64,000 nucleotides of DNA from a virus, in the IMG/VR virus record IMGVR_UViG_3300044940_000489, positions 1 to 64,000 of that record; one strand, 5' to 3'. Made by a program: the position numbers and the translations under genes. The notes below the pieces were generated by a model. It saw only the letters and a list, made by a program, of their open reading frames with translations. It was not told where the DNA came from and made no database searches. Below, piece after piece: positions 20,477 to 37,793 of this stretch. Position 1 is the first letter of the stretch. Each line of letters starts with the position of its first letter.

Positions 20477-20762
20477 TATAAGGTCAAAAGAAAACTCATG
20501 CCTTTAGGCGTGGGATGGATTTTGAAACAAGGTAATATATAATAAGTTTCTTCAAAGTGATGCATAAATTAGTGACAGAGAAACAAATCACTAATTTATG
20601 CATTGAAGACAAAAGTCTTCAATATAATGAAGAATGTTGTATTAAAACAACAACTTGGTGGAGAGGGCAGCCTATCAAGTATAAATAAAGCCTGTGGAGC
20701 GATCAACGGTAGTTGGAGCAATGAAGCAGGAACCCCATGACTTTAGTCGTGGGAGCTGTCAG
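20477..20762 (+). mobile_element. non-autonomous IS200/IS605 (IS1341-type) miniature element with omegaRNA-type 3' end
   Basis: preceded by TTAT; left and right subterminal hairpins (CATG.CTTTAG.CGTGGG); 3' ~110 nt nearly identical to the end of tnpB element 36371-37639; ends GCTGTCAG. Confidence 0.9.
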
Positions 20763-20798
20763 ATTGATTGATATTCATAATAGGGTCAGGGGGCCTGC

Positions 20799-21080
20799 TT
20801 GTTAGAGGCGATTGTTATAGGAATGTGCCTAAATGGGATAGCGTGTACGACTGTGAGCCAGGCATACTATGCCCAGAATAAGCCGCTTCAGGAATTTGTA
20901 CAGGATATGGGGAGGCGAGCGGAAAAGCGTTTGGGCCCAAATACAATGCAGGTGCTGGTCTATACCTTACCGGCAGCCATGCTGGCTTCCGGACAAACTG
21001 GGGTGGCCAGAGTTGGGAAGCATTTTGCAATTGAAGCCAGTAGGGATGTCAGTAAGCTATTATTTGAGGTGGCATTTTGA
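20799..21080 (+). CDS. hypothetical protein, possible N-terminal signal/TM
   Basis: 93-aa ORF, first of plus-strand island. Confidence 0.55.
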   Translation: MLEAIVIGMCLNGIACTTVSQAYYAQNKPLQEFVQDMGRRAEKRLGPNTMQVLVYTLPAAMLASGQTGVARVGKHFAIEASRDVSKLLFEVAF

Positions 21081-21307
21081 AGAAGAGACGTAGCCTATCC
21101 TCAAAATTCTATCCACAATTACATGAAGCGTGGCCGGCGCCGCACGATAATTGGGCTAGAAATGTGCTGTATCGCCATTTTTATAAGTCCAATCTTAAGC
21201 ACAGGCAATTGATTAATTATATTTGGGAATCTCTTGCGCTAAAGCCAGACCCTAGGTCCATGGTCATTGAAACACTATCTAAATCGATGCATGAAGAAAC
21301 GAAATAA
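21077..21307 (+). CDS. small hypothetical protein (MKKRR-start family)
   Basis: GAGG RBS; overlaps previous stop. Confidence 0.55.
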   Translation: MKKRRSLSSKFYPQLHEAWPAPHDNWARNVLYRHFYKSNLKHRQLINYIWESLALKPDPRSMVIETLSKSMHEETK

Positions 21308-21521
21308 TCTACTCGAATACTTTGAGAATAGAGCGGGGGTCGCCATGAGCTTGCAAAGCGGGAGCGATTCTGTTGATGCAGACGGCTATAGAACCAGAAT
21401 ATTCACATACTGGAGCCTTGATACTAAACCCGCGTTAATTACAGCTAGTGTACTAAAGAATACTCCACAATATGTGGGAGTAAGACTTCTAATAAAGCGG
21501 GCCATATTGCAATGCGAATAA
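21291..21521 (+). CDS. small hypothetical protein, paralog of 22585-22892
   Basis: MKKRNNLLEYFENRAGVAMSLQSGSDSVDADGYRTRI nearly identical to the paralog. Confidence 0.65.
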   Translation: MKKRNNLLEYFENRAGVAMSLQSGSDSVDADGYRTRIFTYWSLDTKPALITASVLKNTPQYVGVRLLIKRAILQCE

Positions 21522-21730
21522 GACGGAAGCTAAGCATGAATCACTATAAAGACTTTACTATGAGTTTATGTCGCATTATACAGTCGCAGATAACTCGCCA
21601 TACAAGAATTAAGACACGGTTTCAGGTTAGGCGTGAGCTTATTGAGCTTATTGAGCTTATTGCGCTTAATCACATATATAAAGTTAAGTTATTTATTAAT
21701 AATATGCTAGCATTTAATAATATTAAATAA
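21512..21730 (+). CDS. small hypothetical protein
   Basis: 72-aa ORF overlapping previous gene end; basic N-terminus. Confidence 0.5.
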   Translation: MRIRRKLSMNHYKDFTMSLCRIIQSQITRHTRIKTRFQVRRELIELIELIALNHIYKVKLFINNMLAFNNIK

Positions 21731-21775
21731 GATAATAGGGCGCCAATATAAGCTCCCTAATAATTTATTAATAGA

Positions 21776-22129
21776 ATGGAGGGAACAAAAATGAGTAGAC
21801 CTAAAGATAAACCGGAACAAGTTGAACAAAAACAGAGCCTTAGCTATGAAGAGAATGCAAGACTATCTGCTATATCTTCATTAAGCTATGCCAACACCAG
21901 GGAAGCTTTAGCCATAATGGACATTAGCAAAGATTCGGAGTTTTGGAGTCCTGCGTTTGAAGACGTTAAGAATGCTATTAAAAGAGAAGTATTATTAAGA
22001 GAAAAGCTGACAAAGTTAAAGCGGTTATTGTTGCTAGTAGACCCAGCGGTTGATAACGAGCCAATGAATGAGCTAACTAAGCGCCAATGGGCTGAGTTTG
22101 TAAAAGCTTTTCCTGATGAAGATTTGTGA
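21776..22129 (+). CDS. hypothetical protein
   Basis: GGAGGG RBS before MSRPK; helical ORF. Confidence 0.65.
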   Translation: MEGTKMSRPKDKPEQVEQKQSLSYEENARLSAISSLSYANTREALAIMDISKDSEFWSPAFEDVKNAIKREVLLREKLTKLKRLLLLVDPAVDNEPMNELTKRQWAEFVKAFPDEDL

Positions 22130-22209
22130 GGTTGATGTCACGAGTATGTTCAAAAAGTTTCTAGGTATTTTTGAGCTTTTATGGTAGTCTTAAAAGGACC
22201 GGAGGATTT

Positions 22210-22572
22210 ATGGATTAAAAAACTGTTTTAGATGCTCATAAGTTGTGGCTAGAGACTAATGGTGCAAACGGCGAAAGAGCAATTCTTAGGGGCGCAAATC
22301 TTGAGGGCGCAAATCTTAGGGGTGCAAATTTAGCATTTACAATAATAAAAGCATTTTATATTAGCAAATACTTTGGATTTGCATGGATAAAAGACAAAAA
22401 AGAGATTATAGTTAAAATAGGATGTTTAGAGCATAATATTGATTATTGGTTAAAAAATGTAAAATCAATTGGGCAGAAGTACGAATATTCAAAATCAGAA
22501 ATTGACGACGTAAGAATCATACTAACTGCGATCAAAAAAATAATGGAAAAATCACTAAAAAGAAAAAAATAA
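22210..22572 (+). pseudogene. pentapeptide-repeat protein with nonsense codon at codon 3
   Basis: GGAGG RBS then ATG GAT TAA AAA ACT GTT TTA GAT GCT CAT AAG TTG TGG, in frame with A(I/N)L(R/E)G pentapeptide repeats. Confidence 0.65.
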
Positions 22573-22584
22573 TATTAAATAATG

Positions 22585-22892
22585 ATGAAAAAAAACGCAA
22601 TAAACTACTCGAATATTTTAAGAATAAAGCAGGAGCAGCCATGAGCTTGCGAAGTGGCTGCGATTCTGTTGATGCAGACAACTACAGGACCAGAATATTA
22701 GCAGTGCCCAAAAAGCGAATTAAACCTACTATTTTATGGACACGTTTAATTGATATAACACATGATGCCCTTAGCAAAAAGACCATGCTTGCTAGTGTGG
22801 ATTTTATATTAAGCAAAGAGATGAGTTTTGTATATGGCATTAAGGGCACAATTCAAGAGTCTATTAAAATTCGGACGCACTCAAAATACTAA
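22585..22892 (+). pseudogene. paralog of 21291-21521, frameshifted in an A8 run
   Basis: ATG followed by A8 (22588-22595), then out-of-frame RNKLLEYFKNKAGAAMSLRSGCDSVDADNYRTRI. Confidence 0.6.
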
Positions 22893-22895
22893 AAA

Positions 22896-22928
22896 TACTA
22901 AAGTCAGGGACTTTCTTTTGGTATTATC
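22896..22928 (-). mobile_element. isolated left-end fragment of the IS200/IS605 element
   Basis: minus strand TTAT|GATAATACCAAAAGAAAGTCCCTGACTTTAGTA matches the left end at 30531. Confidence 0.7.
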
Positions 22929-22932
22929 ATAA

Positions 22933-23290
22933 AGGCCCACGCCCACTGCGCATTCCCAGCCGTAACCCCTTTGGCTTTATCTCGAATTGGGAATTGCATT
23001 GTATCTCAGATATTGATATCAAATCAATAAGGCGGCCAACGCGGGCCAGCTCACAACTTCGTCAAAATTACCACTCAGTATGTACGAGTATTTGACTTTA
23101 GGCTTAGCACCAGAGGGCTGTTAGCGGCAGTGCTCCCCTGAAGTGACATACTAATCAATCGCGCTAATCGATGGGGCATGTGACTCCCCCGCTTCTTATT
23201 ATTTAAAGTCTGTAGAAGCCACAGACTTTTTGCTGGAATGTTTAGGACTCCGGTCTGGTTTTTAGCCAGGTATCGCTTAGGAAGACGATA
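22933..23290 (+). ncRNA. candidate structured non-coding RNA
   Basis: ~360 nt with no ORF >=60 aa and at least 7 stems; G-U pairs favour the + strand. Confidence 0.35.
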
Positions 23291-23608
23291 TCAAGACTCT
23301 TTCTTTGAGTCAACCTTCTCGTCGAGTTCTGATTGACCGTTAGCATTTCTGCCAATACGGCGGCCCCAATAGAGACCTGCACACGCGATAAAAAGATTGA
23401 ATGCGCTGTTCACATCAACGCCACCCAAAGATCCAGACCATTTCCCAATGATTCCAGCCACACAAAGATTGAATGAAATAAAAACAAGAGTAAGAGATAC
23501 GGAGCCCTTTTGTGATTCAGGGTCTTTCAGCACGGGAATCGGAATTCCTAGACGATTGCATTCGGAAACTAAGTTCCGCCACTTTGCTGTTATTTCTCTT
23601 AGATTCAT
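23291..23608 (-). CDS. putative holin
   Basis: 105 aa, two hydrophobic helices, charged C-terminus, end of late operon. Confidence 0.55.
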   Translation of the reverse strand: MNLREITAKWRNLVSECNRLGIPIPVLKDPESQKGSVSLTLVFISFNLCVAGIIGKWSGSLGGVDVNSAFNLFIACAGLYWGRRIGRNANGQSELDEKVDSKKES

Positions 23609-24120
23609 CCGATCCTCTCTCTTTTATGGAAGAGCTCCAGCAGTCCATCCTCGATGTCGCTTGGTTTTATTAAATGTCTTGGCTTGTCTATTTTAATTCC
23701 TAGGTCTTCTTCCAAAAACTCAGCGACAAGTTCTGAGCATACGTATCCTGGACCGTCATGCGTTTTGGGGACATTAGCGCCCCACCTCTCAGCTATGTCG
23801 CACAATAATATTTTTAGTAGATTCAGGTAATCATATCTTACATTAGATAGCGACATGCATCTGTTTATCATTTTTAGTCGAGTGGCCCGGTCTATTGGTA
23901 TTTCGTACTCTATCAAGACCTTGTTCTTTTTTAGAAAGTTTTCCTCAGACATAAAATGAACAGTGCCGCCTGCTGCATGGTAGATGCTAGTGATTATATT
24001 TTGGCTTTCAAATTTAATATAGACATGAGAATACGGCCTGTTCTGCCACTCTCTGATAGCATATGCCGCTATATTAAATTTAATCGGCGTAGAAAAACCT
24101 ATTAAAAACTTTGATTCCAT
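23605..24120 (-). CDS. permuted papain-like (NlpC/P60, YiiX/YebB-type) amidase
   Basis: YSHVYI...YD...CSELVAE, with His before Cys. Confidence 0.75.
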   Translation of the reverse strand: MESKFLIGFSTPIKFNIAAYAIREWQNRPYSHVYIKFESQNIITSIYHAAGGTVHFMSEENFLKKNKVLIEYEIPIDRATRLKMINRCMSLSNVRYDYLNLLKILLCDIAERWGANVPKTHDGPGYVCSELVAEFLEEDLGIKIDKPRHLIKPSDIEDGLLELFHKRERIG

Positions 24121-24121
24121 A

Positions 24122-24586
24122 TTAAATTAGCTTGCTATGAATAAGCTGATACCATGAATCAATCATGGACTGAGTGACAAAACCGCTAGGAGTTTTCTGC
24201 GAAAGCCTGTATAGTGCGGTTGGCCACGCACCTTCTCTAATTCTAATTAAAACATCTTGGTATTCAGAAAACATCTCATCTGACTGTTGAGCCGTAATTC
24301 CGAGCAGAGTGTTTTGGGTATACAGGTCCCTAAGAAGGGCTGGGGCCATTTCTTGATAATGTTGAATTTTAGCTCTAATTATTGACTCTAGGCTAACCGT
24401 CTGGCCAGGAGGAGGCTGGAGCATATTATTTTTAAGCTTCCATCCTACTTGAGGTTTTATTAAAAGATCTTCTACGTTCAGAATTAGAGTATAATCTCTT
24501 ATTTTATTCTGGTACTGTTCTTCAGTCAGAGTCATTACTGCGACTACTTCATCGCCCACTAGGGCAGCGTGTAACCTTGCGCTCAT
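24122..24586 (-). CDS. hypothetical protein (tail-fibre assembly-like)
   Basis: PQVGWK..N..L.PP motif as in fibre chaperones; fibre operon. Confidence 0.45.
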   Translation of the reverse strand: MSARLHAALVGDEVVAVMTLTEEQYQNKIRDYTLILNVEDLLIKPQVGWKLKNNMLQPPPGQTVSLESIIRAKIQHYQEMAPALLRDLYTQNTLLGITAQQSDEMFSEYQDVLIRIREGAWPTALYRLSQKTPSGFVTQSMIDSWYQLIHSKLI

Positions 24587-24587
24587 A

Positions 24588-25139
24588 TTATATATCCTGT
24601 TTTGTTATATCAAGGAATTCCACATCGTTTCTTAATCTAATAATACTGTCGTAAACACCCAAATGATTAACGTAAATTCTATCACGATATGTCGTGCTAG
24701 ATCTTATAGCAGTGGCCTCAATCATTAGGGTAGTGTCGCCGTCAAGATTAGTGCCAGTCAATAGACTTACGCTTATATCAACAAAATAATAGCCATTCGG
24801 CTGCAAAACTCCAGTTAGTGTCGTTATTAACTGGTCATCCCACTTGGGGCTAGTTATATCGGCTACTTTGTATACTTTAAAGTTTATTGATGAGGCGCTA
24901 TCAATAGATCCACTGGATGAATTATACAAATAGCCTATTATTCTGATCTTATCTAAGGTTGACGTATCGAGCTGTGCTGCTATTTTTAATACCTGGGCAC
25001 TGTTTGTTAGGGCAGAATTGGGCCCAAACAGAAACTGCCAGTCCTCCATGTCGTTAACAATATAACGAGAAGAGTGGTCTACCTTCAGCCACTGGTTATC
25101 GTCATTATCATCTTGTGCGACTAATCTTCTTACTGGCAT
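24588..25139 (-). CDS. virion structural protein
   Basis: beta-rich 183-aa ORF in fibre operon. Confidence 0.55.
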   Translation of the reverse strand: MPVRRLVAQDDNDDNQWLKVDHSSRYIVNDMEDWQFLFGPNSALTNSAQVLKIAAQLDTSTLDKIRIIGYLYNSSSGSIDSASSINFKVYKVADITSPKWDDQLITTLTGVLQPNGYYFVDISVSLLTGTNLDGDTTLMIEATAIRSSTTYRDRIYVNHLGVYDSIIRLRNDVEFLDITKQDI

Positions 25140-26497
25140 TAATTACCTAAAAGTGTAAAGCCCTTAACGGCTACGATATTTTTTCCTGCCACTGATATAG
25201 TTACTGTTACGGTATAATGGGTCAGGTCAGTCAACAGGATCGCGCTAACTGGGGTTGTGTGGAACAAGCCGTTTGCATCGGCGGCTATTCCCGATTGTGT
25301 GAGTCCAGCCACAGCTACGCCGTCTTTATCATATACGGTATAGCTAGCAGTACCGAGTATTGAAGTGGGCGCGATCTGGTCGTTCTTAGTAGCCCAGAAG
25401 GTAGCTTTAAGCTGGTTACTAGCGTTAATCGAGAATACAGCCCTGCAGGTATACTCGGCCAAATCACCATTAAGAATAATATTTTTTGATCTGAGAATTC
25501 CGTTTACTGTAATATTGGCTCGAATAATAAAATTCTTGGACAGATCTATCGATTGAGGAAGAGCAAACGGGGTGATTATAAAATATCCATTGGAGTCTGC
25601 CGATATGCCAGATTCAGTTACACCAGCTATAATAGAACCGTCTGCGTTGTAAAACTGATAGGAGGCAGTGCCGAGGTTTGTAGTTAATATTTTCTCGTTC
25701 TTTTCTGCCCAAAGGCTTCCGATTATATTATTAGAATTATTGAGGCTGAAGACTCCGTTGATTTTAATATTTTCAACTTCATCATTTAGTGGTATAAAAT
25801 TGACTCTGTCTTCGCCGTCAACGTCAATGGTGACCCGGACGGTATAGTGATCGTTAATACGGTCAGGATCTATTGTATTGGCTATAGGAGTAGCGATATA
25901 GAGCCCCTGAGTATTGGGAGTCGCCACCGACCCAGACATTCCAGTGACAGGGAGTCCTGCCTTGTCGAATACCTGAAAGCTTGCAGTTCCCATAACTGCA
26001 CCTGGCGCAATAGCAAGACTCTCGTTTTTGTCAGCCCACATAGTGATATGAAAAAGATTATTGGAGCTTATTGAGAAGGCGCATTTTGACTCATATACAT
26101 CAATAGAAGTTAGAACACCGGTAGAGATCACGTTTAGGGATACGGTATTGGTATCCCTATTGCTTAATGCATCAACAGCTCGTACTCCCACATAATAAGT
26201 GGTACCATTTACCAGGAAAGAGCCGTCTGGCAATGTGAATATGTCATACTGTAGCTTATCTGTAATAGCAATTATATTAGCCGTATTAAATAGGTTGGTT
26301 GGAGTAGTGGCCTTAATATAGACCTCATACCTTATTGGAGTGTTTGGGTCCGAAGCGGCTGGCCATCCGGCCCGAATTTGACCCCTAGATTCTACATCTA
26401 GAAAGTTGATGCCCGCAAAAGTTGGCGGCGTCAGATCGGCAACGCATGCGTCTGAAGTGGGCATATAAAAATTATCGGCTATAAAAATGTCTGGCAT
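25139..26497 (-). CDS. virion protein with N-terminal FN3-like domain and three Ig-like repeats
   Basis: D.TPPTF.G...W.AASD....Y.VY...TTYYVGVRAVD..N; three GTAS(F/Y)..(F/Y)...G repeats. Confidence 0.65.
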   Translation of the reverse strand: MPDIFIADNFYMPTSDACVADLTPPTFAGINFLDVESRGQIRAGWPAASDPNTPIRYEVYIKATTPTNLFNTANIIAITDKLQYDIFTLPDGSFLVNGTTYYVGVRAVDALSNRDTNTVSLNVISTGVLTSIDVYESKCAFSISSNNLFHITMWADKNESLAIAPGAVMGTASFQVFDKAGLPVTGMSGSVATPNTQGLYIATPIANTIDPDRINDHYTVRVTIDVDGEDRVNFIPLNDEVENIKINGVFSLNNSNNIIGSLWAEKNEKILTTNLGTASYQFYNADGSIIAGVTESGISADSNGYFIITPFALPQSIDLSKNFIIRANITVNGILRSKNIILNGDLAEYTCRAVFSINASNQLKATFWATKNDQIAPTSILGTASYTVYDKDGVAVAGLTQSGIAADANGLFHTTPVSAILLTDLTHYTVTVTISVAGKNIVAVKGFTLLGN

Positions 26498-26593
26498 TTA
26501 ATCTCCAACATAAAACATTATTTTTGTCCAGTGCCTAGGCGCTTCTTCTAGGCATCTGGACAAGGTGCAATATCGCCTACTTTTTCTCATGCG

Positions 26594-29215
26594 CTAGTCA
26601 TTTCTAATAGACGGTCTAATGTCTACCCCAGGAGGGCTTGTAAATGTATATCTAACTAGCGTTCCAACAGTGTTCGGTATGGTTCCAAGTGGTAGCCATG
26701 TGGTTCCATTATCTGTTGAATACTGGAAATTAGACGCATTGGCTGTAGTATTGTGATTCACTAAAAGCACGTTGGACAGGTCTCTTGCCCTAAAAAACAA
26801 TTGGGGCACAACTGTTGGGTATGCCTCTTTTAATCTGAAGGCCACTCTGGACGGAGTGTTATTATCTGACCACTCATCAGAAATTTCCCAATTGTCCACA
26901 TTTTCATTGTCTGGCTGAACAATAACCCTTATTTCTGATACCTGCGCGCCGCGTGCGTGTGATGACTCAAAAAGAGGGAACAGGCACTTAAATTGTATTT
27001 GCGTGGCGGAAGGCACAGAACTCATGTCATTATCGGTCGGCAAATCTGTCCAGCCGCCTGTGGGAGTGGCAAATCCGGAAGTCCGGTACTGTATTTTAGG
27101 TCTACATGTTTCTCCAGGAAGCTGGCGCTGAACATGTGCCGCTATAAACGATCCCGCAGGCACGTTGATTACTCTAGTAATAAAACCGTCAGATGGTGTA
27201 GACGCGGTATCGATGGCATCAAAAAATGCATCAGCTTTGAGGTCTGCTACCAGCGCGCCTCTTTGGTTAATACTAGTAAGTGGCAAGATAAGCCAGCCGT
27301 TACGAACTTCTGGATTAGAAGTCGCTACGCCGCCCACTTCTTGTCCGTCTAGTGGGCTTGCGGCTACTCCCGCCTCTAGGGCGCGGTTATTTGCTACGCC
27401 AAAAACGAAATCGGCCTCAGTATTAACCACTCTTTTAATAATAAACCTAGATGGACCAGATGCTACTGTTGTTGTGGATACCACTCTGTCTAAGTATTGT
27501 GACCAGTTTGCAAATAATGTTACAGGAGCAACAGTATTGTTGGCCGTGTTTGGAAGATTATTTTGAACTAGAAGGCTGGGCCAAGTCGAAGCACCTGATG
27601 TCAATTCACTGATCCTGCCCAAGAAATGTGATGTGGACGAGCAGAAATACACGCAAGGGAAGCCGGCATTGGAAGTATGATTAGGGGTAGCAAAATCTGC
27701 AGCATTGGCTATTGTTGCTCCGGTGAATCCAGAAATAGCGTTGGTACTGTAGTCAAATAGCTCAGCTGTTTGGCCTAGGGCGTTATAGGCATAAAAGTTC
27801 CCGGTCGCAGTCAATCCAATTGTCAGAGTTCCAGTAAACGAGCCAGGCGATATAGCTGTTCCATTCGGAGTGGCAGAAACCTGAACGGTTGACCCAGACT
27901 GTGCAACGACCCAATAATCTGTGTCTGCCGATATGCCAGATGGGAATGTGCCAGTTGACCAGAATCTTACTCTTGATCCAACAACTAATGCCGTTGTTAC
28001 TGCGCTACACGTAATTGTAGTGCCAGAAATAGTCGTAACAGTATTATTTACCGCAGATATACCTGGGGAAGACAGTGCTGACGCATACTGAAAGGTGTTC
28101 GCGGCTAAGTTGGCATTTGAGACGAAGAACTGGTTTGATGCGGCTGTGTGCCCTACTGGGAATAGCCCCACAAAGGCCTGCCCTGTAAAAGATCCTGATG
28201 TAGAGATAGAGGGTCCTCCAACTGTAGTTGACAGCTCAAAAGTAGTCGAAGTTAAGCCAGACGACCTGACATAATAGTTTGTTGCCACTGCCACTCCAGT
28301 GGGCAGTATGGCCGCTCCAGCTGTATGGAACACCTGGACCCGCTCGTCTGCTTGAAAACCATGAGCATTTGCCGTTGTAAAGGTTGTGGTGGTTCCCGTT
28401 GCTATGCTGGTTATTCTGGGAGGAAGTGCAGTTACGTGGTCGTTAACTAGCCATCCGTGTGCAGTAGCATTAACAATATATCCGGTAGCTCCGCGATTCT
28501 GCCAGTTAGTTATTAAAATGGGATCTTGTGTCTGGGTATTAGTATAATCAAAGCGGTACCATCTGGTTGTTGTTGCAGTGGGAACTGTCATGCCCCACAA
28601 TTTATTACCATCAACAAAAGATCCAAAATTTGTAGTAAGGGTATGCAGGGAGGAGTTTCTGGTCTCAACTATATGTTGCACTGCAAAATTCTGATTCGGT
28701 CCTGCCGCAAAGGGAACTACCCGACCTCCGGAAGGCTGAAAGTCGGCCAAATCGCAAGTCACCAAATATAATCCGCCAAAAGTTACGTTTGAAGAGTTGA
28801 CGATGCCAATTGAAATTTTAAAGTTTGTGGTCCCCGCGTCGTTAAGGGCTTCTAATGACCTTAATGTATTGGTCCCTACTGCAGATATTGAGGCCTGCAG
28901 CCGCCCCACATAAGTTGTGGCCCCAGTATTGAGGTTGAAATTGTACAGCACGATGTTAACGAGGCCCGCTCCAGCAATATTTACAAAATACAGTCTACCG
29001 TTTGGTGAACAAAAAGTAAGTGGCGCTGAAGCGCTAAAGGACACTGCGCCGCTCGTATCAGTAAAAACGTCAACAAATTTTGGCAAGTATGGCCCGATTG
29101 CATCCTTGCCATTTAATAGAGTCTTTACGTGAGCTCTACCCAAAATTGTGGTATGGTTCTGGTTGTATGTACCTGATACGGTATCCAATAATTTTGCCGA
29201 ATATGCCTTTGGCAT
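26594..29215 (-). CDS. tail fibre / receptor-binding-like protein
   Basis: 873 aa, Thr/Ser/Gly-rich, ATAHGW/TANAHGF repeats, LPTG.....YYV...FELSTT.GG modules. Confidence 0.65.
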   Translation of the reverse strand: MPKAYSAKLLDTVSGTYNQNHTTILGRAHVKTLLNGKDAIGPYLPKFVDVFTDTSGAVSFSASAPLTFCSPNGRLYFVNIAGAGLVNIVLYNFNLNTGATTYVGRLQASISAVGTNTLRSLEALNDAGTTNFKISIGIVNSSNVTFGGLYLVTCDLADFQPSGGRVVPFAAGPNQNFAVQHIVETRNSSLHTLTTNFGSFVDGNKLWGMTVPTATTTRWYRFDYTNTQTQDPILITNWQNRGATGYIVNATAHGWLVNDHVTALPPRITSIATGTTTTFTTANAHGFQADERVQVFHTAGAAILPTGVAVATNYYVRSSGLTSTTFELSTTVGGPSISTSGSFTGQAFVGLFPVGHTAASNQFFVSNANLAANTFQYASALSSPGISAVNNTVTTISGTTITCSAVTTALVVGSRVRFWSTGTFPSGISADTDYWVVAQSGSTVQVSATPNGTAISPGSFTGTLTIGLTATGNFYAYNALGQTAELFDYSTNAISGFTGATIANAADFATPNHTSNAGFPCVYFCSSTSHFLGRISELTSGASTWPSLLVQNNLPNTANNTVAPVTLFANWSQYLDRVVSTTTVASGPSRFIIKRVVNTEADFVFGVANNRALEAGVAASPLDGQEVGGVATSNPEVRNGWLILPLTSINQRGALVADLKADAFFDAIDTASTPSDGFITRVINVPAGSFIAAHVQRQLPGETCRPKIQYRTSGFATPTGGWTDLPTDNDMSSVPSATQIQFKCLFPLFESSHARGAQVSEIRVIVQPDNENVDNWEISDEWSDNNTPSRVAFRLKEAYPTVVPQLFFRARDLSNVLLVNHNTTANASNFQYSTDNGTTWLPLGTIPNTVGTLVRYTFTSPPGVDIRPSIRND

Positions 29216-29224
29216 GTTAGCTCC

Positions 29225-29995: not shown

Positions 29996-30061
29996 AGCAA
30001 AATGTCCTAACCTGTATACCTACTTACTGGCCCGTGCCAGCAAGATCCGCCATTAGATTGA

Positions 30062-30711: not shown

Positions 30712-30906
30712 TTGTTTATGAAGAAGCGTAAGCAGTTGTGGGATAAGTTGCGGTCTCAGTTGGAGGATAAGTTGCAGTCTCAGTTGGCGTATCAGTTGGA
30801 GTATCAGTTGGGGTATCAGTTGGGGGATCAGTTGGGGGATCAGTTGGGGTATCAGTTGGGGGAGCAGCTTTATAAAGGCATGAAGCATTATTATGAAGAA
30901 GCGTAG
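30712..30906 (+). CDS. small protein with QLxx tetrad repeats (12-bp tandem repeat)
   Basis: (CAGTTGnnnnAT)n-type repeat encoding QLED/QLAY/QLGY/QLGD. Confidence 0.6.
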   Translation: MFMKKRKQLWDKLRSQLEDKLQSQLAYQLEYQLGYQLGDQLGDQLGYQLGEQLYKGMKHYYEEA

Positions 30907-31039
30907 AATATTAATTAATTTCTTGGGCGCAGTATTATTTAATAGGTTTTATTAAAAATTGGGAAGTCCGTGCCGTTTATAATTTTTCTTATTATATATT
31001 AAATGGCAATATTTATGAAGCAATAGGAAAAAGCAATTC

Positions 31040-31237
31040 GTGGCCATAGCGAAGAGGAGTAAACAATCTCATAAACCTCATTTAGAGGTATGCCATGATC
31101 TGCTTTGGCAGTATATGATGAATCTAAAAATACCTATTGACGTTAAAACGCTTATATGGTCTAAGAGCGTTTTTTATGAAAACACTCAATTAAAAAAGAT
31201 GCTTCGTAATAAAATTAGTGATATTATTAATTATTAG
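31040..31237 (+). CDS. small hypothetical protein
   Basis: 65-aa ORF in early island. Confidence 0.45.
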   Translation: MAIAKRSKQSHKPHLEVCHDLLWQYMMNLKIPIDVKTLIWSKSVFYENTQLKKMLRNKISDIINY

Positions 31238-31367
31238 GAGACTCTAATGGCAAGAGACATTAAGTATATCCGGCTTTTAATAAAGCAGACGAATAAATAT
31301 ATTAATAACCAAACAAAACCTCTTTTTGTGGATCAAATAGCCCGTCTGGAGGCTCAGGAGAAGGCCC

Positions 31368-31994
31368 TTGCAAAAAAACCAAAGCACAAGCCTAAGAAAA
31401 ATAATAACTAAGCTGGGGCTACTGTCTTTATTGGCTAGCATTGTTATTCATGCATGTTCGATCTTTATTATGCCGTCAATTATGCCCGCTCCACAAAATA
31501 TGCAGCATGAATCTAGTAAGCAAGGCGGGAACAGCAAGCAGGGGTCTCAAGAGGGCAAGGGCAATTCTAATGCTGTAGAGGTTCGGATTTTGCCGCCAAG
31601 TGGCGCAAAAAGCAATAATAAAGATGTGGCAAAGAATAATAAAAGCGATGTAACGGTTACCGAAAATAAAAATAATAAAAACAAGTCGTCTACCGGATAT
31701 TATGGAATTGGCGTATATGTCATGTATTCGCATGGCCCATTCGTATCTGAAAAATATGGATCATATAGTATGGGCAATAAAATTTGGGATGTCGTGCCAG
31801 GATACCCCGCTGAACAAAACGGTTTGAAAAAGGGAGATATTATTCTGGAAGCCGATGGCGGAAGACTTGATAATGGTGATGACTGGGTTACCAGTAGTTC
31901 TCCATCTGAGATTCATCTGCTAATTTATAGGGATGGAAAATTCCTAGAATTTCGATTTATGCGAGCTTTTATTGAGACAAGCCGTGGCCCCTAA
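31368..31994 (+). CDS. membrane-anchored PDZ-domain protein
   Basis: N-terminal TM, low-complexity linker, YGIGV...VVPGYPAEQNGLKKGDIILEADG. Confidence 0.8.
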   Translation: MQKNQSTSLRKIITKLGLLSLLASIVIHACSIFIMPSIMPAPQNMQHESSKQGGNSKQGSQEGKGNSNAVEVRILPPSGAKSNNKDVAKNNKSDVTVTENKNNKNKSSTGYYGIGVYVMYSHGPFVSEKYGSYSMGNKIWDVVPGYPAEQNGLKKGDIILEADGGRLDNGDDWVTSSSPSEIHLLIYRDGKFLEFRFMRAFIETSRGP

Positions 31995-32190
31995 GAAAAT
32001 ATTAAGAAAAGCCAATATATTAAATGGGCTTGGCATACGGTATTTTTCAGCTCAATGGCAGCGGCTCCCGCCCAATATTAGGTCGCAAATAATGCAGATG
32101 AAATGCAAGGTAACTGAGTCGGCCCTGGCAACACTTTATGGGGGGATTAGATTGGGTTATGGGTATCCTAATAAAAATGAAAAACAATAA
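31972..32190 (+). CDS. small hypothetical protein
   Basis: 72-aa ORF overlapping neighbours. Confidence 0.45.
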   Translation: MRQAVAPKKILRKANILNGLGIRYFSAQWQRLPPNIRSQIMQMKCKVTESALATLYGGIRLGYGYPNKNEKQ

Positions 32191-32255
32191 ACATCCCAAA
32201 AATAAACGTATTATTTTGTTGCTAATATTATTATTTGTGTTACTATTACAGGTAT

Positions 32256-32849
32256 ATGTTGGAAAAGGCATTTGACATAGAACTAAACGAACTTGAGCTA
32301 AAATATCGCGCTGACGATATTAGCCTTACCGACTTCATCAGTCTAATGGAAACTATGGCCCCAGAGCGCAAGCTGGAAGTATCCTCGTGGGACGTATATT
32401 ACGCAGGGAACAAATACGGCCTCCCATTTGACTTCATTCGCCATCGCAAGGGAGACGTGCCTGAGCTTACTATAAAAATAAGGAACAGCGAGAAGAACAA
32501 CCAAGATAGGTTTGAGCTTGACCTTAAAATTCACAATAGCATGTCCAGTCGTATTGTGGCCAAATTTGCAAATATGATTGGCTTTGAGGAGAACTTTAGG
32601 ATATACAAAGATTGCACTATTTACTGGCTACAAAAAGTAGATTTAGTGTATTACATTGTGTATGATAAGGACAAAAAAGAAAAGGCCCGCTTTATTGAGA
32701 TAGAGGCCCGAAAAGATGTAACATTCAACAGCCCCGAAGAGGCATGGGGTCTACTTAAAGAAACTGAGGCCAAGCTTGCCGTTCTTGGGATTACGCCACA
32801 ATCGCGCATGAAGAAGTCTTTGTGGGATATGTTTAAGAAGGATACATAA
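32256..32849 (+). CDS. CYTH (triphosphate tunnel metalloenzyme) family protein
   Basis: ExExK motif ELELKY, D.YY, IR.R, LT.K, RFE, FIEIE. Confidence 0.8.
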   Translation: MLEKAFDIELNELELKYRADDISLTDFISLMETMAPERKLEVSSWDVYYAGNKYGLPFDFIRHRKGDVPELTIKIRNSEKNNQDRFELDLKIHNSMSSRIVAKFANMIGFEENFRIYKDCTIYWLQKVDLVYYIVYDKDKKEKARFIEIEARKDVTFNSPEEAWGLLKETEAKLAVLGITPQSRMKKSLWDMFKKDT

Positions 32850-32851
32850 AA

Positions 32852-33043
32852 ATGATGATCGAGCTGATAGGGTACTTTTTTGCTGGGGTTGCTGCTACTA
32901 TAATGTTGTCATTATTTATGCTTTTTATTATGGCAGTCCGGGCTGCGGGTGAATTGTTTAAAATCGCGGTTTATGGTGTTATTTTAGTATTTATGATAAC
33001 TACTTTGGGGCATTCTGTATTCAAAGCACTGGGGGGATTTTAA
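32852..33043 (+). CDS. small two-TM membrane protein
   Basis: 63 aa, almost entirely hydrophobic. Confidence 0.6.
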   Translation: MMIELIGYFFAGVAATIMLSLFMLFIMAVRAAGELFKIAVYGVILVFMITTLGHSVFKALGGF

Positions 33044-33690
33044 TGGCGGCGACTCTTGTGGATATTGAGGGGCTAGATGGATCTGGCAAAACTACTGCGA
33101 TCAAAACCTTGTGTTCTGCATTGCTAGAGATGGGCTTTAGGGTACTTGAGACTCGTGAAGTTGGATCGCAACATGTTCCTTTTGCTTCCAAGCTGAGAGA
33201 AATAGTTTTGGACCCAGCCAATAAGCTGGATGGAACTACAATGGAGCTTTTGTTTGCGGCAATGCGCATTGAAAGCCAAAAAGAGTACCGTAGAGTTTCC
33301 GAGGATTATGATTTTATTGTGTCAGACAGGGGATACTTGTCTCACCTGGCATATACGGATCATAACGTAAACGAAGATTTTACAAAAGATTTTTATCTAA
33401 CTCTACTAAACAAGTACCTGCCTGCAAAGCCGGATCACGTTTTATATTTATCAGTAGATCCGGAAGTAGCCCTTAGGCGCCGCATGAGACGAGGAGAAGT
33501 GCCGGATGCGATTGAGATTAAGGGCGTCCAATTCCAAACGATGGTTGGGAAAAGTTTTAAAAAGTACTTACGTCAGGAAATGGGAAATATTGATGTATCA
33601 ATTATTGATGCGAATAAAACGGCGGAAGAAGTTCGCTCAATGATTTTAGAATATGCCAGCTTTTTAGCTCGCGGGAAGGCAATGTCATGA
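33043..33690 (+). CDS. tmk: thymidylate kinase
   Basis: IEGLDGSGKTT P-loop, TRE, LLFAA.R, SDR..S..AY, PD..LYL.V.PEVA..R. Confidence 0.92.
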   Translation: MAATLVDIEGLDGSGKTTAIKTLCSALLEMGFRVLETREVGSQHVPFASKLREIVLDPANKLDGTTMELLFAAMRIESQKEYRRVSEDYDFIVSDRGYLSHLAYTDHNVNEDFTKDFYLTLLNKYLPAKPDHVLYLSVDPEVALRRRMRRGEVPDAIEIKGVQFQTMVGKSFKKYLRQEMGNIDVSIIDANKTAEEVRSMILEYASFLARGKAMS

Positions 33691-34433
33691 TTTTAAATTT
33701 TTTAGTAAATGCGCTTAAGCTTGTTTCGCGCCCAATCTCGCTGTTTCTCGCAGTAACAGCTTTGACCATGGCTATCGCGGCGTCAATTCAAGTTGTATTA
33801 TGGATAAACCAAACATTTTTTTCTGTTAGCGATCTGCAATACCGCGACAATCTACCGGCTTTTGAGTCATCAGACGCACAAGGTCCTCAAGCGGGGCGCG
33901 AAGCGCTGATTAGGCTTACGAACTCCAAAGGTCAGCACATTTGCTCCGCTTTCGTAGTCAGCAACAGATATGCCATTACAGCTGCACATTGCTTAGACGA
34001 AGCGAGTGGGATCTTGACTAGAAAAAAGTTTAAGGTTTTTGATATCGAAAGAAAAGATACAGGAATTGAGGTAGAGGCGGTCGGTCTCGTTAATAGAATG
34101 GATATGGGTTTGGTAATGGGAGACTTCTCTGGCTTTAAAAAGCTCTCTCTTGATAGCCCCCCTAAGGGCTTTTTAGGGCGAGAAAGCTCCGTCTTTGCTG
34201 CATGCGGATTTCCTATGGGCGACAAAGAGCTATGCATACCTCAATTAGTAGGTCCAAATATTTATTTCATGGTGCAAGTTGATAGGCCAGTATACCCAGG
34301 AATGAGTGGCGGGCCCGTAATTGACTTGAAAGATGGAACTGTAGTCGGAATTATAAGCAGCACGGAAAGGGGCGGGTCATTAATGGCTCCGATTGTGTCC
34401 ATCTGGAGCGCTTTTGGAATTGAACAAAAATAA
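33687..34433 (+). CDS. membrane-anchored trypsin-like serine protease
   Basis: TAAHC (His), DMGL (Asp), GMSGGP (Ser); N-terminal TM. Confidence 0.88.
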   Translation: MILNFLVNALKLVSRPISLFLAVTALTMAIAASIQVVLWINQTFFSVSDLQYRDNLPAFESSDAQGPQAGREALIRLTNSKGQHICSAFVVSNRYAITAAHCLDEASGILTRKKFKVFDIERKDTGIEVEAVGLVNRMDMGLVMGDFSGFKKLSLDSPPKGFLGRESSVFAACGFPMGDKELCIPQLVGPNIYFMVQVDRPVYPGMSGGPVIDLKDGTVVGIISSTERGGSLMAPIVSIWSAFGIEQK

Positions 34434-34450
34434 AAATAGGAGGAGATAAA

Positions 34451-34816
34451 ATGAAGAGAGTAAAATTTTCGACTAACACTGAGACAGGCATTAAGTATAC
34501 AAAAACGGTGGACTCATCAAGCGGTCCGGTCTATGCGGAATACAACCCATCTACAAATTTAGTTAGAGTTGTATCGGCAGCTAGCGGAAGCACAGTATTT
34601 GCTCCGGGTACTGATGTGGGCCTGGCGCTTCAGATTATTGAAGGCGGGGGACAGACTCCATCTGTTGTCGCTCGTGCGCTACTTGTTAAGGCTGGGGTTT
34701 CATTTGACCGCGAAACTAGAATTCGTAGATCAGTTGATAATTTTGGAGCAAGTGCAGTATTGCCAGGCACGGCGGCCTCACTAGTTACAGGGAGCCTGCT
34801 GGAAACCTTGGATTAA
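34451..34816 (+). CDS. hypothetical protein
   Basis: strong GGAGGAG RBS; 121 aa. Confidence 0.7.
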   Translation: MKRVKFSTNTETGIKYTKTVDSSSGPVYAEYNPSTNLVRVVSAASGSTVFAPGTDVGLALQIIEGGGQTPSVVARALLVKAGVSFDRETRIRRSVDNFGASAVLPGTAASLVTGSLLETLD

Positions 34817-34836
34817 AATTGTTGCTTGGTAGATTT

Positions 34837-34866
34837 AAAAGCGGCTCTCTAAGGGGTGCCGCTTTT
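34837..34866 (+). terminator. rho-independent terminator
   Basis: AAAAGCGGC-TCTCTAAGGGGT-GCCGCTTTT hairpin after stop at 34816. Confidence 0.55.
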
Positions 34867-35119
34867 GAATTTAATGGGACACATGAAAAAACGTATTATT
34901 ATTGATTCCTTCTATCTTTCAAGCGATGAGGGGCTTGAGCGCGGCCAGCAAATTACTGGTTTACCGAAATCAGAGCTGATTGAGCTGGTTGGCATATTTG
35001 GACGCCAAAGCTCTCGAGCTGGATTAGTGCGCGGTGAAATCGTAGTGTACGATGACGGCAGTGGTGTTCTGAGGCATCACTTTAATAAGAAGACAATACT
35101 TAAGTTTAATCATGAATAG
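34856..35119 (+). CDS. hypothetical protein (probable start MKKRII)
   Basis: ORF track; in-frame MKKR start. Confidence 0.55.
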   Translation: MPLLNLMGHMKKRIIIDSFYLSSDEGLERGQQITGLPKSELIELVGIFGRQSSRAGLVRGEIVVYDDGSGVLRHHFNKKTILKFNHE

Positions 35120-35247
35120 CCGAAGAAGAATAGACCACTTCAATACTTGTCTGACGATTCTTAGTGAGGGGGAGAATTTTAATCATTTAGTGCGCAACAC
35201 AAACTTCACAACAGTATCCTCAAGGGAGCACAATCTAGCGATCCCGA

Positions 35248-35277
35248 TTGACTTTTAAACCTATGTCGGGTTAGAAT
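35248..35277 (+). promoter_or_regulatory. sigma70-type promoter
   Basis: TTGACT-N18-TAGAAT immediately before the IS miniature. Confidence 0.55.
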
Positions 35278-35281
35278 TTAT

Positions 35282-35567
35282 TATAAGGTCAAAAGAAAAC
35301 CCATGACTTTAGTCGTGGGATGAATTTTGAAACAAGGTAATATATAATAAGTTTCTTCAAAGTGATGCATAAAATAGTGACAGAGAACCAAATCACTAAT
35401 TTATGCATTGAAGACAAAAGTCTTCAATATAATGAAGAATGTTGTATTAAAACAGCAACTTGGAGGAGAGGGCAGCCCTCCAAGGATAAATAAAGCCTGT
35501 GGAGCGATCAACGGTAGTTGGAGCTATGAAGCAGGAACCCCATGCCTTTAGTCGTGGGAGCTGTCAG
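35282..35567 (+). mobile_element. non-autonomous IS200/IS605 miniature, near-identical to 20477-20762
   Basis: same 286-bp length, TTAT target, TCAG end, few substitutions. Confidence 0.9.
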
Positions 35568-35585
35568 AAAGCTATACGTGATTAA

Positions 35586-35825
35586 ATGGATAGAAGCAGA
35601 GGCCAACGCGTGAAGACCGGATATCTTGTTGTATATTTGGACCAAGAGTTCGACGAGGCGCTATTGGCTGGGCAAATTTACCCAACGCGACAAACCGCAA
35701 TAGATTTTCTTCAGAGGCGGGCCAACCTGCTAAACTCTATGCAGCACGCCGAGATATATTGCATTGTATTAGAGGACAAAACTGACGCTAAAATAATGCC
35801 AATTACAAAAAGGAGCCACAATTGA
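35586..35825 (+). CDS. hypothetical protein
   Basis: 79-aa ORF. Confidence 0.5.
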   Translation: MDRSRGQRVKTGYLVVYLDQEFDEALLAGQIYPTRQTAIDFLQRRANLLNSMQHAEIYCIVLEDKTDAKIMPITKRSHN

Positions 35826-36061
35826 GCTACAAGTTAATGTGCGATTGCAAAAAAGCATTTGCCGCTGCAGGAAACCTATCGGGCGACAAGTACAGAAGAA
35901 CGACTATGGTCGTAACTAAGAGCAAGGATGGCGAGACTTGCGATTATTGCGGGTACTATGTTTTTAAAGACTACGGGAATCCAAGAGAGACGATTATTAG
36001 GCCGCTAGACTTCAAAAGAAAAAAAGCCGCCATAACTGACTGGCACCGACAAGACGAATAG
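35822..36061 (+). CDS. small putative Zn-binding protein
   Basis: CDC ... CDYC; AGGAG RBS. Confidence 0.6.
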   Translation: MSYKLMCDCKKAFAAAGNLSGDKYRRTTMVVTKSKDGETCDYCGYYVFKDYGNPRETIIRPLDFKRKKAAITDWHRQDE

Positions 36062-36122
36062 AAGGCATAGTGAGATTAGAAATCATCAAAAACTTTTGTG
36101 ACGCATACAGCGATTAAGTATC

Positions 36123-36374
36123 ATGAATAAACGTAAGCAGATAAGGGATATCCTAAATCTCACTGAGGTACGTACTAGTTACGGAGAATCTCTTTTTGCA
36201 AGCTCCGGCTTTTCTAAAAATACAAACGCCACTAAACTTAAGAGATATGTCATATACGGTAACACGAAAGTCAGTAAATCTATTTTAGAATATATTCAAT
36301 TTGAAGTACTGCCATATCCAGTGCAGCGCTGCATAGATTTAATATATCAAACAATACAAGAGTATGACGACTGA
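36123..36374 (+). CDS. small hypothetical protein (stop codon supplied by IS right end)
   Basis: MNKRKQ start; ends GAC TGA across the IS junction. Confidence 0.6.
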   Translation: MNKRKQIRDILNLTEVRTSYGESLFASSGFSKNTNATKLKRYVIYGNTKVSKSILEYIQFEVLPYPVQRCIDLIYQTIQEYDD

Positions 36375-37639
36375 CAGCTCCCACGACTAAAGTCATGGGG
36401 TTCCTGCTTCATAGCTCCAACTACCGTTGATCGCTCCACAGGCTTTATTTATGCTTGGAGGGCTGACCTCTCCTCCAAGTGTTCGCATTAATGCGAAACG
36501 TTTTATATTTTTTGCTGCTAATATATCCCTATCATGGGTAGTACCACATGACGAGCATGTCCAAAACCTGTCTTTCAGGGCTAAACTATCATTCTTAGCT
36601 CCGCAAGTACAGGTTTTTGAACTAGCATCAAACCTACCAATCTGTATGACATTTTTGCCATACCAATCGGCCTTATACTTAACCATACTGACGAATTTTG
36701 ACCAACTAACCGAGCTAATTGACTTGGCTAAACGGCTATTTTTCATCATCCCAGAGATGTTTAAATCTTCAAAGCATAAAGCGGCAATTTGGTTCTCTGT
36801 CACCAATTTATGCGATAATTTATGAAGAAAATCATCTCTCTGGTTGGTTATTTTTTCATATGTTTTTGCTAACTTAATTCTTGCTTTTTCTCTGTTTTGA
36901 GATCCTTTTTGTTTTTTTGATAATTCCTTATGCCTTTTGACAATTTTCTTTTCTGCTTTTTCTAAAAACTTAGGGTTAGGAATTTTTGTACCGTTAGATA
37001 AAACTAAGAAATCTTTAATTCCTAAATCAATACCTAAAGTATTGTTTTCATTGATTTTTTGTTTGTTAGGCAATTCTAAGCCATCTTCAACTAAAATTGA
37101 AATATAGCATTTATTAGTTTTTGATTTAGAAACTGTACAGGTTTTAATGGCGCCTTGAAACTTGCGATCTTTAGCAAACTTAACATATTTCAATTTTGGG
37201 ATGAATACTTGGTACTCTTCAAAATCTACTTTAACTCCTTGTGGAAAATGACAAGATGCCTTACTTCTTCTCTTTGCCTTAAACTTTGGGGAGTCTGAAT
37301 TTTTTCTAAAAAAGTTAATAAATGCTTTATCTAGATTTTTTAAAGATGCTTGCAAACTTTGCGAATAAACATCATTTAACCATCCAAATTCTTCTTGTTT
37401 TTTAAGTTTTGTTAATTTTTTAATTAAATCAAAACAAGATAGATTTGTTTTATCTTGTTGATATTGTTTAGTTTTTTGTTCTAGCCCCCAATTATAAATA
37501 AAACGTGCAGCCCCAAAAAACTGCTCTAGTTTTTTGGCTTGCTCTACAGTTGGGTATATTCTATATTTATAAGATCTAATCATATATATTATGCTGCACC
37601 AAACTTATTAACACCACTATTATATCATTTGGTATTTTC
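36371..37639 (-). mobile_element. IS200/IS605 (IS1341-type, tnpB-only) element lacking the left-end hairpin
   Basis: right end ...CCCATGACTTTAGTCGTGGGAGCTGTCAG; left junction TTAT|GAAAATACCAAA without subterminal hairpin; no tnpA. Confidence 0.85.
36393..37583 (-). CDS. tnpB: RNA-guided nuclease TnpB
   Basis: YKYRIYPT N-terminus, RuvC-I GIDLG, RuvC-II FEDL, Zn ribbon SSKTCTC..CSSC, RuvC-III HDRD.AA.NI; all catalytic residues present. Confidence 0.95.
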   Translation of the reverse strand: MIRSYKYRIYPTVEQAKKLEQFFGAARFIYNWGLEQKTKQYQQDKTNLSCFDLIKKLTKLKKQEEFGWLNDVYSQSLQASLKNLDKAFINFFRKNSDSPKFKAKRRSKASCHFPQGVKVDFEEYQVFIPKLKYVKFAKDRKFQGAIKTCTVSKSKTNKCYISILVEDGLELPNKQKINENNTLGIDLGIKDFLVLSNGTKIPNPKFLEKAEKKIVKRHKELSKKQKGSQNREKARIKLAKTYEKITNQRDDFLHKLSHKLVTENQIAALCFEDLNISGMMKNSRLAKSISSVSWSKFVSMVKYKADWYGKNVIQIGRFDASSKTCTCGAKNDSLALKDRFWTCSSCGTTHDRDILAAKNIKRFALMRTLGGEVSPPSINKACGAINGSWSYEAGTP

Positions 37640-37754
37640 ATAAAAATTAGGTTTTTAAGCTAAGTGCTTGTTTTTATTAAGATTTTATATGGTTATTTAT
37701 TGTACTATTTATTTTTTAGGGCCTGTAATTTGCATTAAATTTAGGTATTATTTA
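37640..37754. repeat. ~115-bp direct repeat (copy 2) with late-promoter motif facing tnpB
   Basis: near-identical to 30108-30221. Confidence 0.9.
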
Positions 37755-37793
37755 CTGACAGCTCCCATGCCTTTAGGCGTGGGAGCATGTCAG
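37755..37793. mobile_element. 39-bp REP-like palindrome made of two IS right-end tips
   Basis: CTGACAGCTCCCATGCC-TTTA-GGCGTGGGAGCATGTCAG. Confidence 0.75.

Follow-up and report, generated by a model that had tools for sequence, protein, structure and literature searches.

The gene tnpB is among the most abundant in prokaryotes and its product is the ancestor of Cas12; its natural role, the retention of transposons by homing, has been demonstrated for bacterial chromosomes. Mixed infections are a known setting for the spread of protein homing endonucleases, and in large virulent phages of the T4 type these enzymes cut the element-free allele of a co-infecting genome, into which their genes are copied by repair. 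In the ISDra2 TnpB-omegaRNA complex of Deinococcus radiodurans (PDB 8bf8, 8ex9 and 8h1j) only a 116-nt scaffold beside a 16-nt guide is needed, the scaffold presents a UUUA tetraloop at positions -20 to -17, and a pseudoknot joins positions -5 to -3 with the loop of stem 1, according to the excerpted text of Nakagawa et al. (PMC10097598). The excerpts of Meers et al. 2023 on IS605-like elements of Geobacillus stearothermophilus show that TnpB drives retention by cutting the empty donor joint, and state that gene-less palindrome-associated transposable elements (PATEs) often encode omegaRNAs which TnpB from other copies must use in trans (PMC10055086). For the cyanophage A-1(L) a preprint reports, in its accessible part, that tnpB is transcribed during infection and mentions homing as a possible role (bioRxiv 10.64898/2026.02.14.705889). 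Here we describe a family of IS200/IS605-type elements in the phage record IMGVR_UViG_3300044940_000489 of IMG/VR, which is 119,536 bp long; its first 64 kb constitute the stretch of DNA that was analyzed (hereafter the window). It is rather probable that these elements form a TnpB/omegaRNA homing system resident in a phage, in which guides carried by promoter-driven miniature copies are used in trans.

Searches of the whole record by blastn with a full copy, motif scans and sensitive blast recovered 11 footprints of one IS200/IS605-family element, namely two tnpB copies, five PATE-like miniature elements of 281-310 bp (hereafter minis) and four short remnants. An earlier note on this DNA, made from the sequence alone, had described one TnpB and three minis; these four copies are confirmed, the coordinates it gave for the minis are exact and the repeats are real, but the family is larger and includes the second tnpB copy. 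The type A minis, each 286 bp long and on the plus strand, lie at 20477-20762 (A1), 35282-35567 (A2) and, outside the window, 113329-113614 (A3); A1 comprises a left-end hairpin, an internal tnpB relic, a full RNA scaffold and a right-end hairpin ending in ...GCTGTCAG. Those of type B are B1 (310 bp, 30222-30531, minus strand), with a left-end hairpin, an AT repeat and a final 179 nt showing 96% identity to F1, the tnpB-bearing copy of the window, and B2 (281 bp, 111862-112142, plus strand), which lies outside the window. F1 itself spans 1269 bp on the minus strand (36371-37639). The second tnpB copy, F2, lies outside the window on the plus strand, starts at 119178 and is 90.5% identical to F1 over 316 nt; its 85 visible codons are open, with the gene being cut by the contig end (119178-119536). 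The assembly probably broke at this repeat, and further copies, or a tnpA, may lie in the portion of the genome that was not recovered. A repeat search aligned 20473-20763 with 35278-35568 at 95% and 30221-30400 with 36370-36549 at 96% identity, and the plus-strand minis form inverted repeats of 85-97% identity with the minus-strand copies.

The ends are of the IS200/IS605 type, with subterminal imperfect hairpins and without terminal inverted repeats. Hairpins are present at both ends of A1-A3, B1 and B2, and F2 has the left-end hairpin. In contrast, the left end of F1 lacks it, about 40 nt being missing relative to F2, and F1 should therefore not be movable by a hairpin-dependent transposase. 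As in PATEs, the minis are short, bear both hairpins and possess no open reading frame (ORF) of their own beyond tnpB relics. Judged by its sequence, the family is a tnpB-only IS200/IS605-type element with PATE-like derivatives. A CRISPR array was considered and rejected since there are no short repeat-spacer units.

Among the remnants, m1 (30062-30107, minus strand) is a 46-nt single-hairpin form consisting of the start of the left end, one hairpin and the right-end tail, and m3 (67662-67706, minus strand, outside the window) is likewise a single-hairpin remnant. The near-perfect palindrome m2 (37755-37793) has the right-end tail on both strands around one hairpin, with no TTAT on either side, and may have arisen where two right-end hairpins in inverted orientation recombined. 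The fourth, m4 (22896-22932, minus strand), is a 37-nt left-end-only remnant, 89% identical to the left end of B1 including the TTAT, and has no adjoining promoter.

The tetranucleotide TTAT stands directly 5' of the left end in 10 of the 11 footprints, that is, in all ten copies with a recognizable left end, m2 being the exception; the insertion motif proposed earlier is thereby borne out. The right flanks are unrelated to the left ones, a pattern of insertion 3' of a fixed motif without target duplication. Every copy has a different 3' flank that would serve as its guide, and the four flanks reported before are correct to the letter. These would-be 16-nt guides are ATTGATTGATATTCAT for A1 (20763-20778, plus strand), which is unique in the record at up to 2 mismatches, TAAATAGTACCTAAAT for B1 (30206-30221, minus strand), AAAGCTATACGTGATT for A2 (35568-35583, plus strand) and TCGTCATACTCTTGTA for F1 (36355-36370, minus strand). 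None of the guides has a second TTAT-adjacent match in the record at 2 or fewer mismatches, as would be expected of homing guides. The B1 guide does match the flank of m2 with 1 mismatch, at a site that is occupied.

The tnpB gene of F1 (36393-37583, minus strand) encodes a protein of 396 aa, in which three Pfam domains score above their cut-offs: OrfB_IS605 (PF01385, 1.4e-28), the Cas12f1-like TNB domain (PF07282, 2.9e-21) and HTH_OrfB (PF12323, 3.3e-19). Over residues 4-367 it aligns with ISDra2 TnpB (8bf8) at an E-value of 6e-66, with D186, E272 and D353 aligned to the catalytic residues of the latter, the RuvC triad D191/E278/D361. Together with the four cysteines C325, C327, C343 and C346, these three residues are invariant in 9 of 9 aligned sequences, in agreement with the prior claim that the D-E-D triad and the zinc ribbon are kept. 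The first cysteine pair is CxC rather than CxxC; this spacing recurs in 8 of the 9 aligned relatives and is thus a trait of the clade and not damage. TnpB consequently looks catalytically whole, and the alignment indicates that it is under constraint as well as intact. A nuclease-dead TnpB-derived repressor (TldR) was rejected on account of the intact RuvC triad. Relatives number in the thousands, with the nearest, at 83-91% identity, coming from JGI metagenomes. Searches of contigs with the protein recovered one locus in IMG/VR (53%), 26 loci in metagenome contigs (best 53%) and four in genome contigs, where the best named hits were from Ekhidna and Flavobacterium (45-54%).

An omegaRNA-like scaffold of six helices is predicted for F1 at 36371-36520 (minus strand), where it shares sequence with the final codons of tnpB. 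When the six long copies are aligned, hardly any position varies within the final 110 nt (103-110 of 110 positions, or 94-100%, identical in all 15 pairs), while the whole region upstream differs between type A and types B/F; over the first 50 nt, with F1 left out, only 36-46 positions are identical between pairs. RNAalifold folds the last 150 nt into 37 pairs in the six helices. Among the phage copies 4 of these 37 predicted pairs show changes in both partners with the pairing retained, 3 are unpaired in one or two copies, and one helix has a wholly different sequence in type A as against type B/F and is still a hairpin. Several one-sided changes convert G-C to G-U, a substitution compatible with a helix of RNA but not of DNA. 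When the module was cast as a covariance model, it matched 11 of the 31 loci of distant TnpB homologues, always on the tnpB strand at the 3' end of the gene. In the alignment of the homologues 31 of the 37 pairs covary, 89% of the cells pair as against 32-41% with slid partners, and none of 500 shuffles reached this, with the qualification that this alignment was fitted to the model and hence favors it. The UUUA loop lies at -21 to -18 from the right end, and the first core helix has a loop, GGCAGC, whose sequence complements GCUGUC at -8 to -3, which on our reading is the counterpart of the ISDra2 pseudoknot site. Even the short plus-strand minis of type A retain all six helices. The minis had been said to retain the RNA-bearing 3' region, and what they hold is the full conserved module rather than a stub. 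Given a core of 110 nt beside the functional scaffold of 116 nt, type A minis keep exactly the part that matters in ISDra2, so that the concern that their shorter scaffolds might be non-functional is countered at the level of sequence. No Rfam family reached its gathering score in the window. The same right-end variants recur in different element types (that of B1 is identical to that of A2, and that of A1 nearly so to that of B2), which may result from gene conversion or assembly collapse.

Several of the copies stand directly behind promoters. A1 follows the sigma70-like promoter TTGGCA-18-TATTAT (20447-20476, plus strand, with a TG), which matches 10 of 12 consensus positions and has as its last four bases the TTAT target of A1. 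A2 is preceded by TTGACT-18-TAGAAT (35248-35277, plus strand, also 10/12) and then the TTAT. Promoter-like sites as such are common, a scan of 19800-38200 finding 60 against 45.7 expected; only eight in that interval reach 10/12, and two of these end 1 and 5 nt before A1 and A2. The entire record was then scored by taking every TTAT outside the elements and asking for a -35/-10 pair of at least 10/12 ending 0-4 nt upstream. Such a pair was found at 9 of 1516 TTAT sites, 5 of which are occupied by element copies, the remaining three occupied sites being those of A3 (TTGACT-18-TATTAT), B2 (TTGACA-17-TATTAT) and m3 (TTGACC-17-TATTAT). With 5 of 9 oriented copies so placed, a binomial test gives P = 9e-10 when all TTAT sites serve as background and 3e-5 when only the 141 intergenic ones do; 7 of the latter are promoter-adjacent, and 4 of the 7 are occupied. 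The remnant m2, which has no TTAT, was left out of this calculation, and m4, found later, makes the count 5 of 10. The spacers between the -35 and -10 boxes are unrelated among the sites, which implies that the promoters belong to the phage; that they might be part of the element was rejected for the same reason.

Two further copies, m1 and F1, follow a TTAT that closes another repeated motif (…CTTAGCTTAAAAACCTAATTT), here termed D4. This motif, …AATAAAAAYCAA…YTTAAGYC.AAAACTTAATAT, is about 40 nt long and occurs in nine copies, all on the minus strand, at 1533, 10114, 20376, 30112, 37644, 47659 and 52213 of the window and at 65969 and 74731 of the record. The copies inspected lie shortly upstream of the starts of minus-strand genes in operons that are largely structural, and the motif probably represents a phage-specific promoter class. 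It is contained in the spacer at 30108-30221 (minus strand), which is 93% identical to 37640-37754, its paralogue on the same strand formed by the TTAT and the promoter-like spacer upstream of F1. These spacers are part of a longer stretch of about 160 nt, comprising the D4 spacer and the start of a right end, which is duplicated with 93% identity at 30093-30250 and 37625-37783. Parts of the element flank both copies of this duplication. The D4 copy at 37644 can drive only tnpB, after which it meets the end of a convergent gene, an arrangement suggestive of element-mediated rearrangement or ectopic repair. The plus-strand ORF 36123-36374 receives its TGA stop codon (36372-36374) from the last bases of the F1 right end, and in an empty allele the complement of the TTAT would give TAA one codon earlier.

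All ten orientable footprints point along the local transcription unit. Six of them are flanked on both sides by genes of a common direction, which all of them share (6/6), and the other four, located in gaps between divergent or convergent genes, are oriented like the unit expected to read into them. The minis form the 5' leaders of phage operons, and the right flanks of B2 and m3 lead straight into a ribosome-binding site and start codon. The earlier note had placed all three of its minis at -10 boxes and two of them in the sense orientation. This holds for A1 and A2, but B1 has no acceptable -35/-10 pair ending within 6 nt of its insertion point and is itself in sense relative to its minus-strand neighbors. 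The promoter association as a whole is statistically strong and wider than was then seen. We found no published report of promoter targeting by the IS200/IS605 family in the portions of the literature available to us, and the coupling to the -10 box, which is strong, is apparently unreported; it is the phage setting and the close, sense-oriented coupling that appear to be new.

This distribution bears on the possibility that the copies are merely passive litter, i.e. inactive, decaying non-autonomous derivatives found behind promoters because only the gap between promoter and gene tolerates insertion and AT-rich -10 boxes often contain TTAT. Certainly, little room exists elsewhere, with only 5345 of 119,536 bases lying outside both the elements and ORFs of at least 60 aa (the genome being about 95% coding). 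Further, short remnants make up 4 of the 11 footprints, and the left-end hairpin of F1 is gone, while two other left flanks from the community (loose ends 35289 and 20473) have no -10 box in the 30 nt listed. The antisense strand bears a strong terminator-like hairpin of 9 pairs followed by a T-run (35484-35459), which by itself would select against antisense insertions with no need for guide expression. However, the promoter association persists when intergenic TTATs alone are considered (4 of the 7 promoter-adjacent sites occupied, P 3e-5), and tolerance on its own would equally permit sites upstream of -35 boxes or in terminator gaps. Neither would litter explain an intact TnpB under constraint, or a 110-nt core far better kept than the left ends when transposition needs only the hairpins. 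We therefore hold mere litter to be unlikely.

A second alternative concerns the cause of the promoter pattern and is compatible with homing: a TnpA not seen in the record might prefer the non-template strand of melted promoter DNA, in an open complex or a -10 region melted by supercoiling, with position and sense orientation arising as by-products. In all seven promoter-linked copies the insertion point comes 0-4 nt behind the -10 hexamer, or its counterpart in D4, on the non-template strand, and falls within the region of roughly -11 to +2 that is melted in the open complex. That the promoters are not borne by the element, as indicated by their unrelated spacers, is also in keeping with such targeting. 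Access is nonetheless doubtful, since sigma holds the non-template -10 strand in the open complex, and B1, F2 and m4 do not fit. According to the excerpted source, IS200/IS605 TnpA needs single-stranded DNA and prefers the lagging-strand template, and single-stranded DNA generated by transcription has been suggested as a further source (PMC3333891), which lends the proposal some plausibility. A lagging-strand preference would, however, also yield the sense orientation if genes are co-oriented with replication, and the absence of published reports of promoter targeting noted above, within the sources available, speaks against it as well. Targeting of this kind is hence possible, if doubtful. 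The other of the two readings is selection, whereby only expressed copies home, insertion is tolerated only in the gap between promoter and gene, and an antisense copy would bring transcription to an end. Targeting and selection for expressed and tolerated insertions are not distinguished by the data.

On the basis of how these copies are built, their insertion after TTAT, their association with promoters, the intact catalytic residues and the covarying RNA structure, a homing mechanism may be proposed in which transcription, loading, cleavage and homing would succeed one another. An element that has an ISDra2-like TnpB, and for which the record contains no TnpA, has colonized the phage, with its copies inserted 3' of TTAT, along local transcription and mostly just behind a -10 box. 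Owing to this placement, transcription from phage promoters would cross each copy and leave it at the right end, giving an RNA with a conserved scaffold of about 110-150 nt followed by the site-specific flank. TnpB from F1, expressed from the phage promoter-like motif, and perhaps from F2, would bind these RNAs in trans and trim them to omegaRNAs. To judge by ISDra2 and the Geobacillus elements, each ribonucleoprotein would recognize TTAT plus its own flank, a combination that would exist only in a genome without that insertion, whether that of a co-infecting relative or one that TnpA has freed of the element by excision. The empty site would be cut, and repair from the filled genome would restore or copy the insertion. 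Such an arrangement may help the element to spread between co-infecting phages. The mechanism itself is that of known TnpB/omegaRNA homing, and guides of PATEs acting in trans have already been proposed in print, as the excerpts of PMC10055086 indicate.

The phage is present in DNA runs from hot-spring and microbial-mat metagenomes, and public contigs from 4 of these runs stop at the borders of every long copy. The junctions themselves are spanned by independent contigs (19800-20495, 20734-21383, 30817-35319 and 35539-36399). Added up over the contigs, the element is covered 3-7 times as deeply as its flanks, and the same ends occur in the community contigs with other flanks, implying that the family is abundant outside this phage. 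In run X10 a variant of 2.2x depth (30191-30493) has B1 replaced by a short remnant, and is also devoid of 30 nt of flank that would be the target of the guide of B1.

A number of observations weigh against homing by promoter-driven guides. As regards the origin of new copies, tnpA (PF01797) gave no match at E <= 1 in the 119.5-kb record, which is 74% complete by CheckV, whereas the control matched in 10 of 14 genomes; the search for tnpA elsewhere that the earlier note had called for thus came back empty for the whole record, although, this being incomplete, a TnpA supplied in trans is conceivable. Its other suggestion, that related phages be searched for the empty sites, likewise turned up no related phage: with 17000-40000 as the query, megablast matched none of 50,697 phage records and so yielded no relative supplying an empty site, an 873-aa neighboring protein has no relative in IMG/VR, and right-end DNA patterns had no match in viral, metagenome and genome contigs. 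Among the contig joints listed for the 4 DNA runs there is no clean joint of TTAT to flank, i.e. an empty allele, an absence that we do not count as evidence in these contigs. As the contigs break within every long copy, the pairing of left and right flanks rests on the original assembly. Three copies, B1, F2 and m4, have no convincing promoter upstream. The high identity of the right ends could stem in part from recent spread, gene conversion or collapse of repeats in assembly, and the covariation figures carry the above-mentioned bias of a model-fitted alignment. Finally, the left-end hairpin followed by ATGAATTTT was flagged as terminator-like and could lower read-through into the scaffold.

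The state of F1 raises yet another alternative, that of domestication by the phage, in which a promoter-driven TnpB with a crippled left end and guide leaders would exclude relatives lacking the insertions, or TnpB bound to the 5' leaders of early genes would tune their expression. F1 would indeed be immobile for a hairpin-dependent TnpA, yet holds an intact gene behind a phage promoter-like motif, and the position of the minis as operon leaders, with B2 and m3 running into translation starts, would suit this role. Against this, the catalytic residues are intact, unlike those of the nuclease-dead TnpB-derived repressors in the account excerpted from PMC10705468, the guides are simply local flanks as in any selfish copy, and no relatives were found in which conservation of the arrangement could be compared. 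Domestication accordingly appears quite improbable.

The homing reading also admits of an extended form, which we advance as speculation and think unlikely in its entirety: a multi-locus RNA-guided homing drive, in which melted non-template promoter DNA would be the preferred landing site of the transposase, each new copy would be born as a promoter-driven guide cassette and one non-transposing TnpB would serve them all. Single-hairpin scars of 40-50 nt such as m1 and m3 would then be drive-resistant, as they separate the TTAT from the target at minimal cost. Homing by TnpB in a virulent-type phage with eleven footprints would place the process where homing matters most. If the promoter pattern results from targeting, it would constitute a new target-choice rule for single-strand transposases; if from selection, it would show directly that the survival of copies depends on guide expression. 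The family would also offer a compact natural instance of one small nuclease with many separately encoded guides.

The record is that of a myovirus-like phage, encoding relatives of tail-sheath and baseplate-wedge proteins; it has no end repeats, and most of its large proteins have no match in PHROG. Directly beside F1 and m2 lies an ORF of 494 aa (37814-39298, minus strand) that matches the homing endonuclease/HNH families of PHROG (E 2e-84), so that two kinds of homing-type nuclease are neighbors here. Elsewhere in the window, the 1229-aa ORF at 43566-47255 (minus strand) contains a 78-nt tandem array (44240-45475; at least 13 registers, 64-88% identity), which corresponds to a 26-residue protein repeat. 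The small ORF at 30628-30888 (minus strand) contains a 12-nt repeat (CAGTTGGGGKAT-like, about 10 or more units, 30709-30876), at which contigs of runs X1 and X7 differ and show loose ends, indicating that the copy number is probably variable. A direct repeat of 110 nt with 84% identity occurs at 21294-21403 and 22590-22699, and a contig of run X7 (depth 12.7) omits the 1296 bp between its copies, representing a deletion variant in the population.

In comparison with the systems introduced at the outset, the phage family resembles ISDra2 in its molecular parts. The D-E-D triad and zinc cysteines are common to both, the RNA overlaps the 3' end of tnpB and terminates at the right end in both, and the sizes of core and functional scaffold as well as the UUUA loop beside the guide agree, as far as the excerpted description of ISDra2 goes. 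The phage element differs in having no tnpA in the record, a CxC first cysteine pair, no Rfam match and a phage host, and in a flanking motif of TTAT as against TTGAT in ISDra2. In the composition of the family it resembles the Geobacillus elements, where tnpB-only and gene-less PATE-like copies likewise share their ends. Those are chromosomal, with an identified tnpA, and the excerpts of PMC10055086 mention no promoter association, whereas here 11 footprints, an unusually dense colonization, occupy a 120-kb phage, mostly sense-oriented behind promoters. The tnpB of cyanophage A-1(L) is also borne by a phage, but is a single copy identical to host copies, and the accessible part of its description mentions neither minis nor a promoter pattern; by contrast, many copies are present here, and the closest named bacterial relatives are only 45-54% identical. 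The proposed population behavior is the same as that of the homing endonucleases of T4-type phages, and an ORF resembling HNH/homing endonucleases adjoins F1. The difference is that recognition here would be by an RNA guide and TTAT rather than by the protein, so that one nuclease could serve many sites.

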